64,000 nucleotides of DNA from an uncultured delta proteobacterium (GCA_963847445.1 CAWJZV010000024.1:1-64000), one strand, 5' to 3'. Positions 10,618 to 54,030 are shown, counted from the stretch's first letter. Made by a program: numbers and translations. The notes: generated by a model from the sequence alone, not told the origin.

Positions 10618-11055
10618 GTAGGGGCGGGTTTGAAACCCGCCCTCCTAGTTCTGGCATGACGAAAATATTTCCCAGGCTGCCGCAGAATTTGTTGCCACAC
10701 AACTACGAGGAAATCCTATCTCACCACGAAGGACACGAAGAGCACGAAGTTCGGACTAATAATTTTCCGAACCCTTCGTGTCCTTCGTGAGCTCCTTCGA
10801 AAATACCTGTGAGGGGATGGATATGCACATCGATAACGACTCTCTGTTCCGTCATACCGGCGCAGGCCGGTATCCATCCCCCCTCCCGCCCCTGGATGCC
10901 GGCCTGCGCCGGCATGACGAGTCTAAGGAATGAACCCTCGCGAGAGGGCTTCCGGTATTTTCATGATCAGTAGACGAGCGTAAGCCCATGAAGCACTTCG
11001 TGGTGAAAACTCTTTGCCATTTGGTTGCGGCTCTGCCGCACTAGGTTCTCTGCGG
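10618..11055. repeat. nested repeat mosaic with a CGTC REP doublet at 10850-10919
   Basis: Filled version of the 5385-5505 element. Confidence 0.85.
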
Positions 11056-21957: not shown

Positions 21958-22872
21958 CTACGCCCGACGAGAAACTACCCGACGCAGACGGCTCCAGGCT
22001 TCGACCAATCCGCCGGGGAGAAACAATACGACCAGCATGAAAAGAATGCCGAAGATTATCAAATGGAATTCTACCAGTTTTACCGCCAGTAATTCTTTCA
22101 AGATGACGTAAAAGAGCGCGCCGAGCACTGGGCCATGGACGGTGCCGACGCCGCCGATGTAGGACATCAGCACGGCGTCGAAAGTCCAGGCTGGAGAAAA
22201 AGTGTGCTGCGGGTAGTAACTGACGTGATAATAGGCGAAGGCGCCGCCGGCTAGTCCGGCGAGCGCCGTGGAGAGCGCCAACGCGAGAAGCTTGTGGCGC
22301 AGCGCGCTCACGCCCGTAGCTTCCGCCGCGGCTTCATCCTCGCGCACGGCGCGGATACCGAGGCCGAGGCGCGAGGGCACCAGCCATGCAACCACTCCTA
22401 CACTCACCATCGCCAAGGTTAAAGTCAGATAATAACGCGGCAAAATATTATACGATGTAAGTTCCGCCGCGGGGATGGTGGAAATCTGCGGCAATAAATT
22501 CCCGATCGTGATGCGCAGTATCTCGGCCAATCCCAACGTGCCGATGGCGAAATAGGCGCCGCGCAGACGGAATGCCGGAACGCCGATAAGCAAGCCAAAT
22601 AACATGGCCACGAGCGCGCCGGGGAAAAGCGCCAAGATCAGCGGCGTCCCGCCGACCCAAAGGGTGCGCGTGACCAGGGCGCCGAGTCCGAAAAACGCCG
22701 CGTGGCCGAGATTGATCTGGCCGGCGTAGCCGCCGAGAAGATTCCAGCTTTGCGCCAGGACGACGGCGAGAAATATTTGCACGCCGAGATTGAGCAGATC
22801 GCCGCGTATTGTAACCAGCGGCAGCGCGGCGAACGCCGCGGCGAGCAGGAGTCCCGCGCCCAGCAATTTCAC
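21958..22872 (-). CDS. livM: branched-chain amino acid ABC permease
   Basis: SWNLLGGYAGQINLGHAAFFG and RLRGAYFAIGTL motifs. Confidence 0.9.
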   Translation of the reverse strand: MKLLGAGLLLAAAFAALPLVTIRGDLLNLGVQIFLAVVLAQSWNLLGGYAGQINLGHAAFFGLGALVTRTLWVGGTPLILALFPGALVAMLFGLLIGVPAFRLRGAYFAIGTLGLAEILRITIGNLLPQISTIPAAELTSYNILPRYYLTLTLAMVSVGVVAWLVPSRLGLGIRAVREDEAAAEATGVSALRHKLLALALSTALAGLAGGAFAYYHVSYYPQHTFSPAWTFDAVLMSYIGGVGTVHGPVLGALFYVILKELLAVKLVEFHLIIFGILFMLVVLFLPGGLVEAWSRLRRVVSRRA

Positions 22873-23741
22873 GCGCGCGCTCCGAAAAGCCCCTGGGGCC
22901 GCACCACTAACACGATGAGGAAAAGAAGCAGTCCGACGACTTCGCGGTACGGACCGCCGAGAAACACCACGCTCATCGCTTCAGCGAGGCCGAGGATGAT
23001 GCCGCCGGCGAAGCTGCCGAAGAGCGAGCCGAGACCGGCGAGAACGATGACGATGAGCGCCTTGAGAGTCCATTCCATGCCGATGGACGGACTGATCGAA
23101 TAGGAAATGCTGACGAGTCCTCCGGCGATTCCGGCGAGCGCGGTGCCGAGGGCGAAGGCGAGCAGGTAGGTTTTCCCGACCGGGATTCCCATCAGAGCCG
23201 CAGCTTCCCAATCTTCGGCGGTGGCGCGGATCGCGCGGCCCCAACGCGCCTTGGCGAGAAACAGATGGAGCGCGGTTAGAATCGCAAACGCAAACACGAG
23301 GCTGCTCAGGCGCAACCACGGAATTGCCAAACCGCCGAGCCTCAACACGGCGCCGGCATAGGCGGTGGTCACGGCGCGCTCATCCGCGGTCCATAGTCGA
23401 ATAGCGAGGGCGTGCAAAACCAGCGTAAGGCCGAAACCGATGAGCAGCGAATTTTTGATGCGCGTTTCTTCGTGGGCTTTGACGACGAATTGAAACAACG
23501 CCCAGTAGAGCAATAGTCCGAGCACGAACATCGCCGGAGTGACAGCGAGCAGCGAGACAAATGGATCGATCCGCCAAAGAGTGAACAGCCAAAAGGTGCC
23601 GTAGCCGCCGAGCATGAGCAGCTCGCCGTGGGCGACGTTCAAGACGCGCAGCACGCCGAACGTCAGCGAAAGTCCCGCCGCCGCCAAGCCGTAGAGGCCG
23701 CCGACGAGGAGTCCGAGAATGAGTTGTTGGGCGAGGATCAT
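22869..23741 (-). CDS. livH: branched-chain amino acid ABC permease
   Basis: GLSLTFGVLRVLNVAHGE and GRAIRA motifs. Confidence 0.9.
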   Translation of the reverse strand: MILAQQLILGLLVGGLYGLAAAGLSLTFGVLRVLNVAHGELLMLGGYGTFWLFTLWRIDPFVSLLAVTPAMFVLGLLLYWALFQFVVKAHEETRIKNSLLIGFGLTLVLHALAIRLWTADERAVTTAYAGAVLRLGGLAIPWLRLSSLVFAFAILTALHLFLAKARWGRAIRATAEDWEAAALMGIPVGKTYLLAFALGTALAGIAGGLVSISYSISPSIGMEWTLKALIVIVLAGLGSLFGSFAGGIILGLAEAMSVVFLGGPYREVVGLLLFLIVLVVRPQGLFGARA

Positions 23742-23791
23742 TGATCAAACATGGTAAGGCGTAAAAAGTAAGTGGTGAGGTGTTCGCCTTC

Positions 23792-24161
23792 TGTCATTCC
23801 CGCGCACGCGGGAATCAAGTGCTTCGTCCTCCCTCAGACATGTTTCCGTCCCACAAGTCCTTCCAATCCGGATTTAGTTCCTCGATCAGCTTCAGTTTCC
23901 ACGCTCGATTCCACATTTTGATCTGTCTTTCCCTTGTTATGGCGGAAACCATGTCGTCGTGTAGCTCGTAATACACTAGAAGGTGAACACCGTACTTTTT
24001 TGTGAAGCCCTCGATAAAATCATTCTTGTGTGTCCACGCACGTTGTTGAACGTCACTCGTTACACCGACATAGAGAGTTCCGTTGCGCTTACTCGCGAGA
24101 ATGTAAATTGCAGGCTGTTTAGTCATCGTTAACCTGGATTCCCGTTTTCACGGGAATGACG
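23792..24161. mobile_element. putative REP-flanked GIY-YIG element
   Basis: Inverted 28-bp REPs at 23792-23819 and 24134-24161 tightly enclose one ORF, between livF and livH. Confidence 0.7.
23815..24126 (-). CDS. GIY-YIG nuclease (small standalone family)
   Basis: IYILASKRNGTLYVGVTSD..R...H, FTKKY, LVYYE, AI.RE.QIK.W.R.WK and NPDWKDL motifs. Confidence 0.92.
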   Translation of the reverse strand: MTKQPAIYILASKRNGTLYVGVTSDVQQRAWTHKNDFIEGFTKKYGVHLLVYYELHDDMVSAITRERQIKMWNRAWKLKLIEELNPDWKDLWDGNMSEGGRST

Positions 24162-24211
24162 TCGAAGGCATCGCAGTCATTTTCAGTGTCTTGTTTTTTG
24201 TCTCGTTGTAG

Positions 24212-24937
24212 TCATGAAGATACTCCCCTCGCCAGCGGCCCCAGGTAAGCCGCGCGGATGCGATCGTCCGCCAGCAGTATTTTACCATCGCCCTCGCCGA
24301 CGATTCTGCCGCCTTCGAGTATGTAGGCACGTTGGACCAGGGCCAGGACGGCGTGCACGTTTTGCTCGACGATCAACAGGCTCATGCCGTCGCGATGCAG
24401 CTCGGTGAGAATGGCAAAGATCGACTCGACGAATTTCGGCGCCAGGCCGAGGGACGGCTCGTCGAGCAGGAGCAGGCGAGGAAGACCCATGAGCGCGCGG
24501 CCGAGCGCGAGCATCTGCTGCTCGCCGCCGGATAGTAATCCGGCCCTTTGGCGCTGGCGCTCGAAAAGGCGCGGGAAGAGAGTGAAGACGCGCTCCAGTT
24601 GAGCGTGTTTTTCTTTGTGCGCGCGTTCGGTGAAGGCGCCGAGCTCGAGATTTTCACGCACGGTCATCGCGGCGAAGAGCCTGCGCCCCTCTGGGACCAG
24701 CGCAATGCCGTGTTCGACGATCCGTTGCGGCGATGCCGCGCTGATTTTTTCATCTTGCCATCGAATCGCGCCCGCGCGCGGCGCGAGCAGCCCGGAAATA
24801 GACTTGAGCAGTGTCGACTTGCCGGCGCCGTTGGGGCCGACAAGAGCGACCATTTCACCGGGACGAATGATCAAATCGACGCCGTGCAGGGCCAGTAGCG
24901 GGCCGTAGGCGACTTGGAGATTTGTTATTTCGAGCAT
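24212..24937 (-). CDS. livF: branched-chain amino acid ABC ATPase
   Basis: GPNGAGKST, VPEGRRLF, LSGGEQQML and LDEPSLGLAP motifs. Confidence 0.9.
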   Translation of the reverse strand: MLEITNLQVAYGPLLALHGVDLIIRPGEMVALVGPNGAGKSTLLKSISGLLAPRAGAIRWQDEKISAASPQRIVEHGIALVPEGRRLFAAMTVRENLELGAFTERAHKEKHAQLERVFTLFPRLFERQRQRAGLLSGGEQQMLALGRALMGLPRLLLLDEPSLGLAPKFVESIFAILTELHRDGMSLLIVEQNVHAVLALVQRAYILEGGRIVGEGDGKILLADDRIRAAYLGPLARGVSS

Positions 24938-25058
24938 TTATTAGGTAAGCCCGTTCCAATCGTTCCAAAGTTCCAATCGGTTCCATCAGGTGTTTCCCGG
25001 AGACGTTCCCTCGATCAAACGATTGGAACGGCTTGAAACTATTGAACCATTGGAACCT

Positions 25059-33125: not shown

Positions 33126-33178
33126 AGAGTTTGCCGGCTCTGTAAAATTCAGAATTGAAAAAGCATTTCGTCGTGTCC

Positions 33179-33335
33179 GTCATACCGTTGAAAGCTTGCC
33201 CCGGACGCGATCCGGGGACGGTATCCAGGTGGATGATGGGTCTGGATTCCCGTTGTCACGGGAATGAGTGCGATTCGATGTAGGGGCGGGTCGCGACCCG
33301 CCCTCGCCTGGATTACCGCCTGCGCGGAAATGACG
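33179..33335. repeat. CGTC-type REP cluster with nested palindromes and a GTAG REP
   Basis: CGTCATACCG..CGGTATCCAG, CTGGATTCCC-N8-GGGAATGA and GTAGGGGCGGG..CCCGCCC. Confidence 0.75.
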
Positions 33336-39068: not shown

Positions 39069-39184
39069 AGATTGGAGTGATGGAGTATTGGAGTGTTGGG
39101 TCTCGGAACTCCGAAAACCCATGACTCCATACTCCAGTACTCCATATTCCAGTCTTCTTCACCGTCTTCCCGCCCCACAGGCTG

Positions 39185-39222
39185 TCGAAGAAGCCGCTTT
39201 TCTCCATCTCGTCGAGATAGCG
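39185..39222. repeat. 38-bp perfect direct repeat of 39442-39479 (displaced gene tail)
   Basis: TCGAAGAAGCCGCTTTTCTCCATCTCGTCGAGATAGCG occurs twice. Confidence 0.9.
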
Positions 39223-39231
39223 CTCAGCGTC

Positions 39232-39314
39232 CGTCATACCGTTGGAAAACGGTATCCAGGGGATGGATGGACCCCGGTTTTCACCGGGGTGACGATGATA
39301 AGGCGGGAATGACG
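39232..39314. repeat. CGTC-type REP doublet
   Basis: ATACCG-N8-CGGTAT and ACCCCG-N8-CGGGGT arms in inverted orientation. Confidence 0.8.
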
Positions 39315-39416
39315 TCGACTTCTAGTCGATGTTCGCCGCCTCGGCCTCGAACAGACGATTATCAAGACCTCTCGCGTTTTGGGTGAGAGTCGTCAAGTTA
39401 CCGGCAACTTGTTGGG

Positions 39417-40409
39417 CTATTTTTTGGAGCTCCAAATATTTTCGAAGAAGCCGCTTTTCTCCATCTCGTCGAGATAGCGGCGGTCGATGAGCTGCTGGGG
39501 TTGAACTTTCTTGGCGCGCGGGTCGTTGATGGCGAGCTCGTCGAGGATCGCTTGCAGCGCTTCTGGCCGCACGTCGAATCTCGGCTCCATGGCTTTGAGT
39601 TCGTTGTTGTACGAGGTTTCGAGGACTTTGCGATCGCTGACGCGCAAGTACTTGGCTAAAATCTTCAATGTCGTTTCCCTCTCAGCGTGAAAAATCTTCG
39701 ACGCCTCGGCCATCGAGCGCATGAACTGGCCGATCACCTGCGGTTTGCGCGCGATCACGGAACGCCGGGAGACGAAAGCCGCGGCGGCGTAGGGAATGCG
39801 CAGGTCGGGGCCGTAGATCAAATAGTGAAACCCTTGGGCGACGGCGTTTTGACCGTAGGTCAGCATCGCCGAGGCGTCCACCGAGCCATTGAGCAGCGCG
39901 ATCAGGTCGGCGGCATCGCCGCCGGTCTGGCGAAAGATCACATCCTTGGCCGGGTCCAAGCCGATACGCTGCAAAACTTGGATGGCGAAATAATGGTTGT
40001 TGCTGCCGAGGCGGTTGACGCCGATGCTTTTGCCTTTGAGATCTTCCGGCCGTTTGATCTCCGGCTTGGCGACGATGCTGTGCGTCAGAATATTCTTTAC
40101 CGCGCCGACGATGACGAAGTCCTGGGCGCCTTGGACATAGGCACTCAGGATGCCGATGCCGCCGATTATTCCGACGTCGGTTTCCCCGCCGATCATGGCT
40201 GCGGCAGCAGTGCTGGCGGAGCGCATGAGCACCAGATCGAAGTCGAGATTATGCTTGCGAAAGATGCCGGCATCGCGGGCGATCCAGGGCAAGGATTGCG
40301 AAATTGCGATGGCCGAGTGAATGCCGATGAGCTTGTCGGCGCCGGCCGCGTTGTGCAATGGCAAGACGATGAGCAGGAAACCAAGAACGGCGATTCTGTG
40401 GACTCGCAT
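39417..40409 (-). CDS. NitT/TauT-type ABC substrate-binding protein
   Basis: PWIA.D.G.F.K..LD, EDLKGK.IG and EMEKSGFF motifs. Confidence 0.85.
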   Translation of the reverse strand: MRVHRIAVLGFLLIVLPLHNAAGADKLIGIHSAIAISQSLPWIARDAGIFRKHNLDFDLVLMRSASTAAAAMIGGETDVGIIGGIGILSAYVQGAQDFVIVGAVKNILTHSIVAKPEIKRPEDLKGKSIGVNRLGSNNHYFAIQVLQRIGLDPAKDVIFRQTGGDAADLIALLNGSVDASAMLTYGQNAVAQGFHYLIYGPDLRIPYAAAAFVSRRSVIARKPQVIGQFMRSMAEASKIFHAERETTLKILAKYLRVSDRKVLETSYNNELKAMEPRFDVRPEALQAILDELAINDPRAKKVQPQQLIDRRYLDEMEKSGFFENIWSSKK

Positions 40410-53744: not shown

Positions 53745-54030
53745 TATTCACCACGAAGTGAATCATGATCTTACGCACGCCACGGATAATGAAAATGGAT
53801 GGGATTTTCTCCATAGGCGGTCTGCTTGACGCGTCATTCCCGCGCACGCGGGAATCCAGGTTAGCCTGCGCCGAATTAGCCTGGATACCCGCTTTCGCGG
53901 GTATGACGGAACCCAGGTGACATCTTCATTGTGGAGACCCTCCCCTTACATGTATTTTCTAGGAGGCACGAAGGACACGAAGGTCTCGGATAATTAATAT
54001 TCCGAACTTCGTGCTCTTCGCGACCTCCTT
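53745..54030. repeat. nested repeat mosaic with a CGTC REP doublet at 53832-53908
   Basis: Inverted counterpart of the 10720-11010 composite. Confidence 0.85.

Follow-up and report, generated by a model that had tools for sequence, protein, structure and literature searches.

The window analyzed here, a stretch of 64,000 nucleotides from an uncultured delta proteobacterium (CAWJZV010000024.1:1-64000), belongs to a genome of 7.19 Mb in 48 contigs that is termed G000 in the following. It carries genes for a liv-type ABC transporter, in which a livF-like ATPase and a livH-like permease are accompanied by a second ATPase, a second permease and a Peripla_BP_6 binding protein. The livF-like and the livH-like gene are separated by a gene for a small GIY-YIG nuclease, ssn, that is enclosed by two REPs (Table 1). 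Read on the gene strand, the upstream REP, CGTCATTCCCGTGAAAACGGGAATCCAG, consists of a CGTC tag, an 8-bp stem, a 4-nt loop and a CCAG tail, and the 7-nt spacer GTTAACG lies between this tail and the ATG of ssn. The TGA stop codon (23815-23817) falls within the downstream REP, which is inverted relative to the upstream copy such that the GTCAT heads of both face outward. Sequence, ORF call and Pfam thus confirm the 370-bp unit of the original prediction, including a start codon 7 nt from one REP and a stop codon inside the other.

Table 1. Position of the ssn unit, its neighbors and further REP doublets and clusters in the window
Feature	Position	Strand	Basis and remarks
Downstream REP, TGTCATTCCCGCGCACGCGGGAATCAAG	23792-23819	+	Window sequence; 8-bp stem and 4-nt loop
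Upstream REP	24134-24161	-	CTGGATTCCCGTTTTCACGGGAATGACG on the window strand, the reverse complement of CGTCATTCCCGTGAAAACGGGAATCCAG
ssn, gene for 103-aa single-domain GIY-YIG nuclease	23815-24126	-	ORF call, Pfam PF01541
livF-like ABC ATPase gene, 5' neighbor, same strand as ssn	24212-24937	-	PF00005, E 1.7e-32
livH-like permease gene, 3' neighbor, same strand as ssn	22869-23741	-	PF02653 (BPD_transp_2), E 2.5e-39
Gene-less heads-out REP doublet, REP family of the ssn unit; first copy fits the strict NTS consensus	53832-53908		REP scan
Heads-out REP doublet, ATACCG and ATGCCG stems	10850-10919		REP scan
Heads-out REP doublet within a stretch missing at the orthologous site of G003	39233-39293		REP scan, comparison with G003
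REP cluster, make-up unlike that of the orthologous G003 cluster	33170-33335		REP scan, comparison with G003

Assignment of the unit to the Ssn/NTS system

Small GIY-YIG nucleases paired with repeats have been described by Chenal et al. (Nat Commun 2025; PMC11893778), who named the family Ssn and defined the repeat NTS as CGTCATTCCCGCGMAVGCGGGAATCYRG, with dRS3 inside. SsnA from Neisseria meningitidis (NMV_0044, 94 aa, GIY-YIG, CDD cd10448) binds NTS solely in single-stranded form and makes its cut upstream of the repeat at a distance of a few nucleotides; cleavage is abolished by the exchanges Y6A, Y17A and E64A. Three more homologues cleave beside their own repeats, which brings the total to four. 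A related motif (SRM) was reported near 71% of Ssn homologues, on both sides in 42%, and an Ssn homologue is encoded in 137 of the 169 genomes that contain more than 200 SRMs. Transformation by NTS-bearing DNA is reduced by ssnA, and restriction of such repeat-bearing DNA as it enters in single-stranded form is the only in vivo role demonstrated. In their Discussion, the authors liken NTS-ssnA-NTS to an insertion sequence, to IS200/IS605 and to REP-associated transposases and propose domestication together with repeat expansion. Besides this paper, our literature search for a connection of GIY-YIG proteins with REP-type repeats returned nothing relevant. The CGTC REPs had been defined earlier by Di Nocera, De Gregorio and Rocco (2013; PMC3733652), who stated that they lack a dedicated transposase. 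Since the Ssn/NTS pairing was described in 2025 and the NTS-ssnA-NTS arrangement is in print, the unit in the window adds to a known family and is not the new, possibly unpublished mobile system that had originally been proposed. It provides an environmental example of the pair outside Neisseria.

Both REPs of the unit share the core ATTCCC-N8-GGGAAT and had been assigned to the CGTC/dRS3 type on this ground, in agreement with our comparisons with SRM, NTS and CGTC-1 sequences. The upstream REP fits the degenerate search sequence published for SRM, and it deviates from the strict NTS consensus solely in the topmost pair of the stem, a compensatory change from C-G to T-A. In the downstream REP, tag, stem, loop and the C following the palindrome are all present and a single mismatch to SRM is found in the tail (ATCAAG vs ATCYNB). 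An Rfam scan of positions 23000-25000 gave nothing beyond one chance-level viral match.

Pfam assigns residues 6-78 of the 103-aa window protein to the GIY-YIG family (PF01541, E 5e-14) and detects no second domain. NCBIfam yielded just a sub-threshold match to group I intron endonucleases, PADLOC and PHROGs gave no family match, and a phage search at E 1e-10 in 50,697 records returned zero matches. The matches of a PDB sequence search, weak, additive and confined to WD40 repeat proteins, were taken as spurious. For the comparison with SsnA, a gonococcal ORF served as reference in place of the N. meningitidis protein. This 94-aa ORF agrees in its start, MQPAVY, and in the contexts of Y17 and E64 with the NMV_0044 primers given in the supplement of Chenal et al. 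(2025). It originates from the N. gonorrhoeae records NZ_CP119140.1 and NZ_CP119142.1 (2.17 Mb), which are filed as plasmids yet chromosome-sized and for which the ssnA orthologue is unannotated in the collection table. The window protein shares 66% identity (59/89) with the gonococcal orthologue at E values of 2e-45 (BLASTP) and 1e-33 (tblastn), well below the value of E < 1e-10 used to delimit the Ssn family. The catalytic tyrosines and the glutamate are retained: Y8, Y19 and E66 align with the gonococcal residues at an offset of +2 relative to Y6, Y17 and E64 of Neisseria and are, together with R29, invariant across 16 diverse relatives (alignment A1). Close Ssn homologues are typically 96 aa long and usually end with DEIV. 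The C-terminal residues of the window protein are different, with a reading frame that extends seven codons into the downstream REP, and this altered, longer C-terminus might affect activity. Judged by its sequence, i.e., by length, single domain, homology, catalytic residues and the SRM 5' of the gene, the window protein is a member of the Ssn family.

CGTC REPs in the genome and beside other Ssn genes

The core ATTCCC-N8-GGGAAT occurs four times in the window (expectation 0.00, 100 shuffles) and 64 times in the complete 7.19-Mb genome. A scan of G000 for perfect hairpins headed by GTCA returned 496 matches compared with 105-382 for eight other four-letter heads, and SRM was matched 230 times vs 26 times in a reversed-sequence control; 38 sites fit the strict NTS consensus. 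The main stem types are ATACCG (79), ATTCCC (66), ATGCCG (52), ATTCCG (30) and ATACCC (29), and the main REP classes comprise 270 perfect-stem copies. Heads-out doublets with gaps of 14-57 bp were found 87 times, heads-in pairs within 100 bp not at all. The ssn unit is the sole heads-out REP pair of G000 with a gap of 101-600 bp and its layout is therefore that of a REP doublet with a gene in the spacer. Two further ssn copies are present in G000 and both are broken. The one on contig C13 (64% identity) is frameshifted and situated between two doublets, while the one on contig C1 (38% identity) is flanked by a different GTCAT-headed inverted repeat.

Some arrangements around the REPs of the window deserve mention in their own right. 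The region 39120-39440 contains a stretch of about 270 nt that is extra relative to the related genome G003, has a REP doublet inside and is bounded by a direct duplication, about 40 nt in length, of the end of the adjacent gene (GTCGAAGAAGCC...GAGATAGCG). An unrelated second repeat family (CACGAAGGACACGAAGG ... CTTCGTG) is present at 53950-54030 and also at the liv junction of G043 (L053), and a related form resides at the liv junction of G023 (L056).

The pairing of gene and repeat extends far beyond G000. A search with alignment A2, which is narrower than the diverse alignment A1, led to 80 loci from Nitrospira, iron- and sulfur-oxidizing Betaproteobacteria, Planctomycetota, Chloroflexota, Cyanobacteria, Desulfobacterota and others, the proteins being 59-76% identical to the query. 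With a strict requirement for perfect stems and a reach of 90 nt, and with control windows placed 350 nt further out, a forward REP was detected upstream in 50/80 loci (control 4/75), a reverse REP downstream in 42/80 (control 5/73) and REPs on both sides in 30/80 (control 2/68). The stems on the two sides agree in 24 of these 30 cases (permutation mean 11, maximum 18). The opposite, heads-in layout is found in seven of the 80 loci. These figures agree with the statistics of Chenal et al. (2025), who also remarked on the RAYT-like architecture. The inverted GTCAT-type hairpins that had been proposed as a feature to look for in the flanks of homologues are thus indeed there, and the REP-gene-REP layout is both real and general.

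More distant subfamilies are accompanied by other GTC-headed repeats with compensatory changes in the stems. Such inverted repeats (GTTCGTCCTGAGCGTAGCG...GAAGGAC, GTCATCCTGAGC...GAAGGATC and GTCATTGCGAG...GCAATCCAG) were noted for small GIY-YIG proteins encoded at L041 in G026, L042 in G035, L018-L024, L106 and L125, and in L042 the GTTCGTCCTGAGCGTAGCG...GAAGGAC repeats form tandem arrays. The variety of GTC-headed repeats beside distant subfamilies suggests many co-varying pairs of enzyme and repeat.

The liv junction in related genomes

Orthologues of the livH-like permease gene are present in ten of the 31 genomes of the genus, and the junction with the livF-like gene appears in occupied, empty and decayed states among close relatives, which makes it a natural contrast. 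REP-ssn-REP occupies the junction in G000, G045, G018 (with stop codons and loss of the start codon), G019 and G005, the last entry resting on an unpublished genome. In G003, G011 and G013, the junction is empty, with REP-free spacers of 85, 85 and 90 bp, respectively. These three genomes supply the empty junctions that had been suggested as a check, and they agree with the original view that the liv operon is normally contiguous. The junction of G043 contains a degraded ssn remnant overwritten by the second repeat family and that of G023 contains unrelated repeats. A left half-hairpin is common to the empty sites and missing from the occupied ones, such that the empty state looks ancestral, and since the empty junctions are free of REPs, these must have arrived along with ssn.

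G003 is the closest relative of G000 (nucleotide identity 95% for livH and 96% for livF) and its junction is nonetheless empty. The difference between the two genomes starts in the last codons of livF and stops 2 nt beyond the downstream GTCAT head. It is a replacement and not a clean insertion, as expected from homologous recombination. A target duplication is not visible at the liv junction of G000 and G003, the left border being undefined.

Among the five occupied genomes, nucleotide identities of ssn are star-like at 74-79.5%, while those of livH range from 79% to 93%. When G000 is compared with G045 or G018, dS amounts to 1.3-1.5 for ssn and to 0.30-0.37 for the adjacent livH, a difference of about fourfold. 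The dN/dS values for livF were left unused because the nucleotide alignment is possibly out of frame. The ssn alleles at the liv site are therefore either far older than the split of their hosts or have been replaced, and their ages fit repeated entry or recombinational allelic exchange better than simple vertical descent. For the five liv-junction orthologues of ssn, dN/dS lies between 0.03 and 0.12 in nine out of ten pairs; in the tenth, G045-G019, dS is saturated and no ratio is obtained. The gene is thus under purifying selection and, by this token, functional.

A divergent GIY-YIG subfamily is encoded 2-3 kb from the liv operon in G003 (C7:135475-135732), G018 (C11:11288-11545) and G023 (C628:21003-21260), where it matches profile positions 4-93 with E values of about 1e-24 to 1e-27. 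It was not found at the corresponding place in G000.

Proposed role and spread of the unit and of gene-less REPs

Going by its homologues, a protein of about 96 aa from this family would bind its cognate repeat solely in single-stranded DNA, and recognition would involve the CGTC tag, the stem sequence and the C following the palindrome. The two GIY-YIG tyrosines and the metal-binding glutamate would then hydrolyze the strand on the 5' side of the repeat, a few nucleotides away. An enzyme acting on single-stranded repeats should be active wherever repeat-bearing single strands appear in the cell, be it in transforming or conjugating DNA or in replication or repair intermediates, and its cutting may shape recombination around REPs. 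The role in transformation established for Neisseria may not apply to the organism studied here. Strand and spacing indicate that the unit, inserted as it is in an operon for a liv-type ABC transporter, is probably co-transcribed with it. The REP tail provides the sole purine-rich stretch ahead of the ssn ATG. Taken together, we consider it very probable that positions 23792-24161 constitute an NTS-ssn-NTS unit, in which a gene of the Ssn family and two inverted REPs of the CGTC-1 (dRS3/NTS) type are combined, that the encoded protein cuts single-stranded DNA as other Ssn proteins do and that gene and REPs are gained, lost and exchanged among lineages as one unit.

What spreads CGTC-type REPs is a question that the 2025 paper does not settle. 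That the gene is an ordinary repair-type nuclease gene, which happens to lie between REPs acting as terminators or RNA stabilizers, is hardly conceivable. REPs are common in intergenic DNA of G000, as evident from the 270 perfect-stem copies, yet such a chance or regulatory juxtaposition is contradicted by the unique gap of the unit in the survey of heads-out pairs and by the flanks of the 80 loci, where REPs are enriched about tenfold over controls and stems match across the two sides. The direct recognition of repeats in published biochemistry (Chenal et al., 2025) argues against it as well. A more serious candidate is an autonomous transposable REP-ssn-REP element belonging to a class that current IS schemes do not include. 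Its 96-aa nuclease would, together with host replication and repair, move or copy the unit and also the gene-less CGTC doublets as miniature, non-autonomous derivatives. We put this forward tentatively. It is favored by the heads-out layout that the unit shares with the gene-less doublets, by the joint arrival of REPs and gene at the liv junction, by the high dS of ssn relative to livH and by identities of 59-76% over many phyla, which point to horizontal spread. It is also in line with two loci of one metagenome-assembled genome, L097 and L120, that are 88% alike just from GTCAT to ATGAC and unrelated outside, with homology ending near the cut position reported for SsnA (Chenal et al., 2025). 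REP clusters of G000 and G003 differ at a flank identity of 95%, and CGTC REPs are without a dedicated transposase according to Di Nocera et al. (2013). Several observations speak against an autonomous element: G000 contains one intact and two degraded ssn genes and not several near-identical copies, a clean target duplication is not seen and the G000/G003 difference is a replacement as in homologous recombination, the insertion is of old date, with synteny kept in at least five genomes, and restriction of transforming DNA is the one in vivo function shown by Chenal et al. (2025). From the mechanistic side, it is relevant that the published proteins are GIY-YIG enzymes. Enzymes of this type hydrolyze DNA and pass through no covalent intermediate, so they would depend on other factors for rejoining, which also counts against autonomous transposition. 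It is unlikely, on the other hand, that ssn is a selfish passenger or guest of REP arrays, lodged in or between doublets and copied via repair or recombination after cutting them, with REPs being spread by another activity or kept by selection. This would fit the existence of REP-rich genomes without ssn, the position of the gene between two heads-in doublets in seven of 80 loci, in the C13 copy of G000 and at the gonococcal locus, and decay in place as is usual for homing-type genes (stop codons in G018, a remnant in G043 and the broken C13 and C1 copies of G000). It is at odds with empty liv sites that lack a pre-existing REP, with a dN/dS of about 0.1 and with the same repeat type accompanying the gene across phyla. 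An alternative enzyme flanked by REPs was not found; REPs on the flanks are not a consistent feature of the Y1 genes in G000 and in seven related genomes.

The relation between REP number and ssn argues in both directions. Within the genus, 21 genomes with a full-length, stop-free ssn contain a median of 74 REPs and the ten without contain a median of 8.5 (range 5-30; Mann-Whitney p 1e-4, uncorrected for relatedness or assembly quality and with 'intact' genes classed by hand from profile matches), in accordance with mobilization by Ssn. An earlier comparison of 41 relatives by one stem type and one protein query had given a weak link; the broader pattern and the profile used within the genus made the picture clearer. 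In the neighboring genus, G032 (448 REPs of the ATTCCC type), G038 (239, in a single contig) and G036 (120) are REP-rich and do not contain a small GIY-YIG gene, their matches being just UvrC-sized or weak fragments. The correlation between gene presence and REP copy number that had been suggested as a further check therefore appears in one genus and fails in the other. G026 has 71 REPs and neither a cognate ssn nor a Y1_Tnp match (E <= 0.001), a combination that is unfavorable to mobilization by Ssn and to the passenger explanation alike. One caveat works in both directions: REPs break short-read assemblies, so a 370-bp gene bounded by REPs can drop out of fragmented genomes. Many contigs of G040 start or finish in a REP.

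RAYTs are thought to mobilize GTAG REPs. A role for a RAYT as mobilizer of the CGTC REPs is not supported. Of six Y1_Tnp places in G000, five lie more than 1.5 kb away from any CGTC REP, which is in favor of Ssn as the mobilizer, and at the sixth, which is below the Pfam cut-off, a REP doublet is about 270 nt away. Single-copy Y1_Tnp genes for proteins of about 340 aa occur in seven related genomes of the neighboring genus. A CGTC REP or doublet is situated at most about 120 nt downstream in three of the seven (L037, L038 and L141; G032, G040 and G035), and none of the seven has REPs on both sides in the strict test. Regarding the hairpin-recognizing mobilizer of the original prediction, recognition of the repeat stands, as it has been shown for homologues (Chenal et al., 2025), while autonomous mobilization is still conjectural, with comparative data on either side. 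That Ssn proteins spread gene-less REP doublets and CGTC REPs in general is likewise a published hypothesis for which our comparative data argue both ways, and we rate it as possible rather than probable.

Comparison with known systems places the unit next to SsnA/NTS of N. meningitidis (Chenal et al., 2025), with which it shares a GIY-YIG protein that has one domain, measures about 94-96 aa and is 66% identical to the gonococcal orthologue, the same catalytic residues, a repeat of the form CGTCATTCCCG...CGGGAATCCAG to either side of the gene and hundreds of genomic copies of this repeat. It differs in that its host is an uncultured environmental bacterium, that it resides inside an operon for a liv-type transporter, that its REPs are positioned heads-out right against start and stop codons, whereas the gonococcal gene sits between REP doublets, and that its ORF has an altered C-terminal extension of seven residues. 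Like CGTC-1 REPs and dRS3 (Di Nocera et al., 2013), the repeats carry a CGTC or TGTC tag, an 8-bp stem starting with AT, a 4-nt loop and a CCA-type tail and occur mostly as inverted dimers. The 8-bp stem and the 4-nt loop are present in both copies flanking ssn, and copy numbers are high. In contrast to the repeats of that study, for which a dedicated enzyme was not found, several stem variants occur side by side in G000. RAYT/REPIN systems resemble the unit in having a single gene between inverted copies of the REP family of the genome, gene-less inverted doublets in intergenic DNA and a gene that is often single-copy and long resident. The enzyme encoded in the window is a GIY-YIG hydrolase (PF01541 only) and not an HUH Y1 transposase (PF01797), the tag is CGTC and not GTAG, and PF01797 matches in G000 lie away from the ssn unit.

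TnpA of IS200/IS605 cuts and rejoins DNA via a covalent phosphotyrosine, whereas we know of no rejoining activity for Ssn. The two are similar in that their substrates are hairpins of single-stranded DNA preceded, on the 5' side of the stem, by a short guide motif, a comparison drawn in the Discussion of Chenal et al. (2025). As in insertion sequences, terminal inverted repeats bound the homology between copies (L097/L120), but G000 does not contain several near-identical copies. With GIY-YIG homing endonucleases of the I-TevI type, the unit has the catalytic fold and a patchy, selfish-gene-like distribution with decaying copies in common. The window protein differs from these by having neither a separate DNA-binding domain nor an intron or phage context, and the substrate of Ssn is single-stranded and not duplex DNA (Chenal et al., 2025).

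The idea of Ssn as a mobilizer is already in print and would therefore be no surprise to the specialist. It is made testable by the GTCAT borders of the unit, by ssn alleles older than their flanks and by REP numbers that follow the presence of intact ssn in one genus and not in the neighboring one. If the NTS-ssn-NTS unit were an autonomous element, which in our opinion is possible albeit doubtful, this would answer the question, dating from 2013, of what mobilizes CGTC REPs, and the liv junction would be a site repeatedly entered or replaced by divergent ssn alleles.

Copies residing in one and the same genome were also encountered outside G000, the members of these pairs being 88-91% identical. 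The pair L082/L085 is embedded in repeat arrays such that its ends are unreadable. In the pair L096/L127, homology reaches an outer inverted repeat, CATAAGCGCTAACTTAA ... TTAAGTTAGCGCTTATG. REP-ssn-REP is enclosed by this outer repeat in L096 and L127 and similarly in L104, L107, L116 and L124, all from genomes labeled as Deltaproteobacteria. At L006 (G001:C19) and L017 (G003:C16), the REP downstream of ssn is interrupted at an identical point, after CTGGATNCCC, by the same element, which begins with AAATTCACAAAC...GTGCAACAC followed by an ORF starting with MGQNY and resembles an insertion sequence with the REP hairpin as its target.
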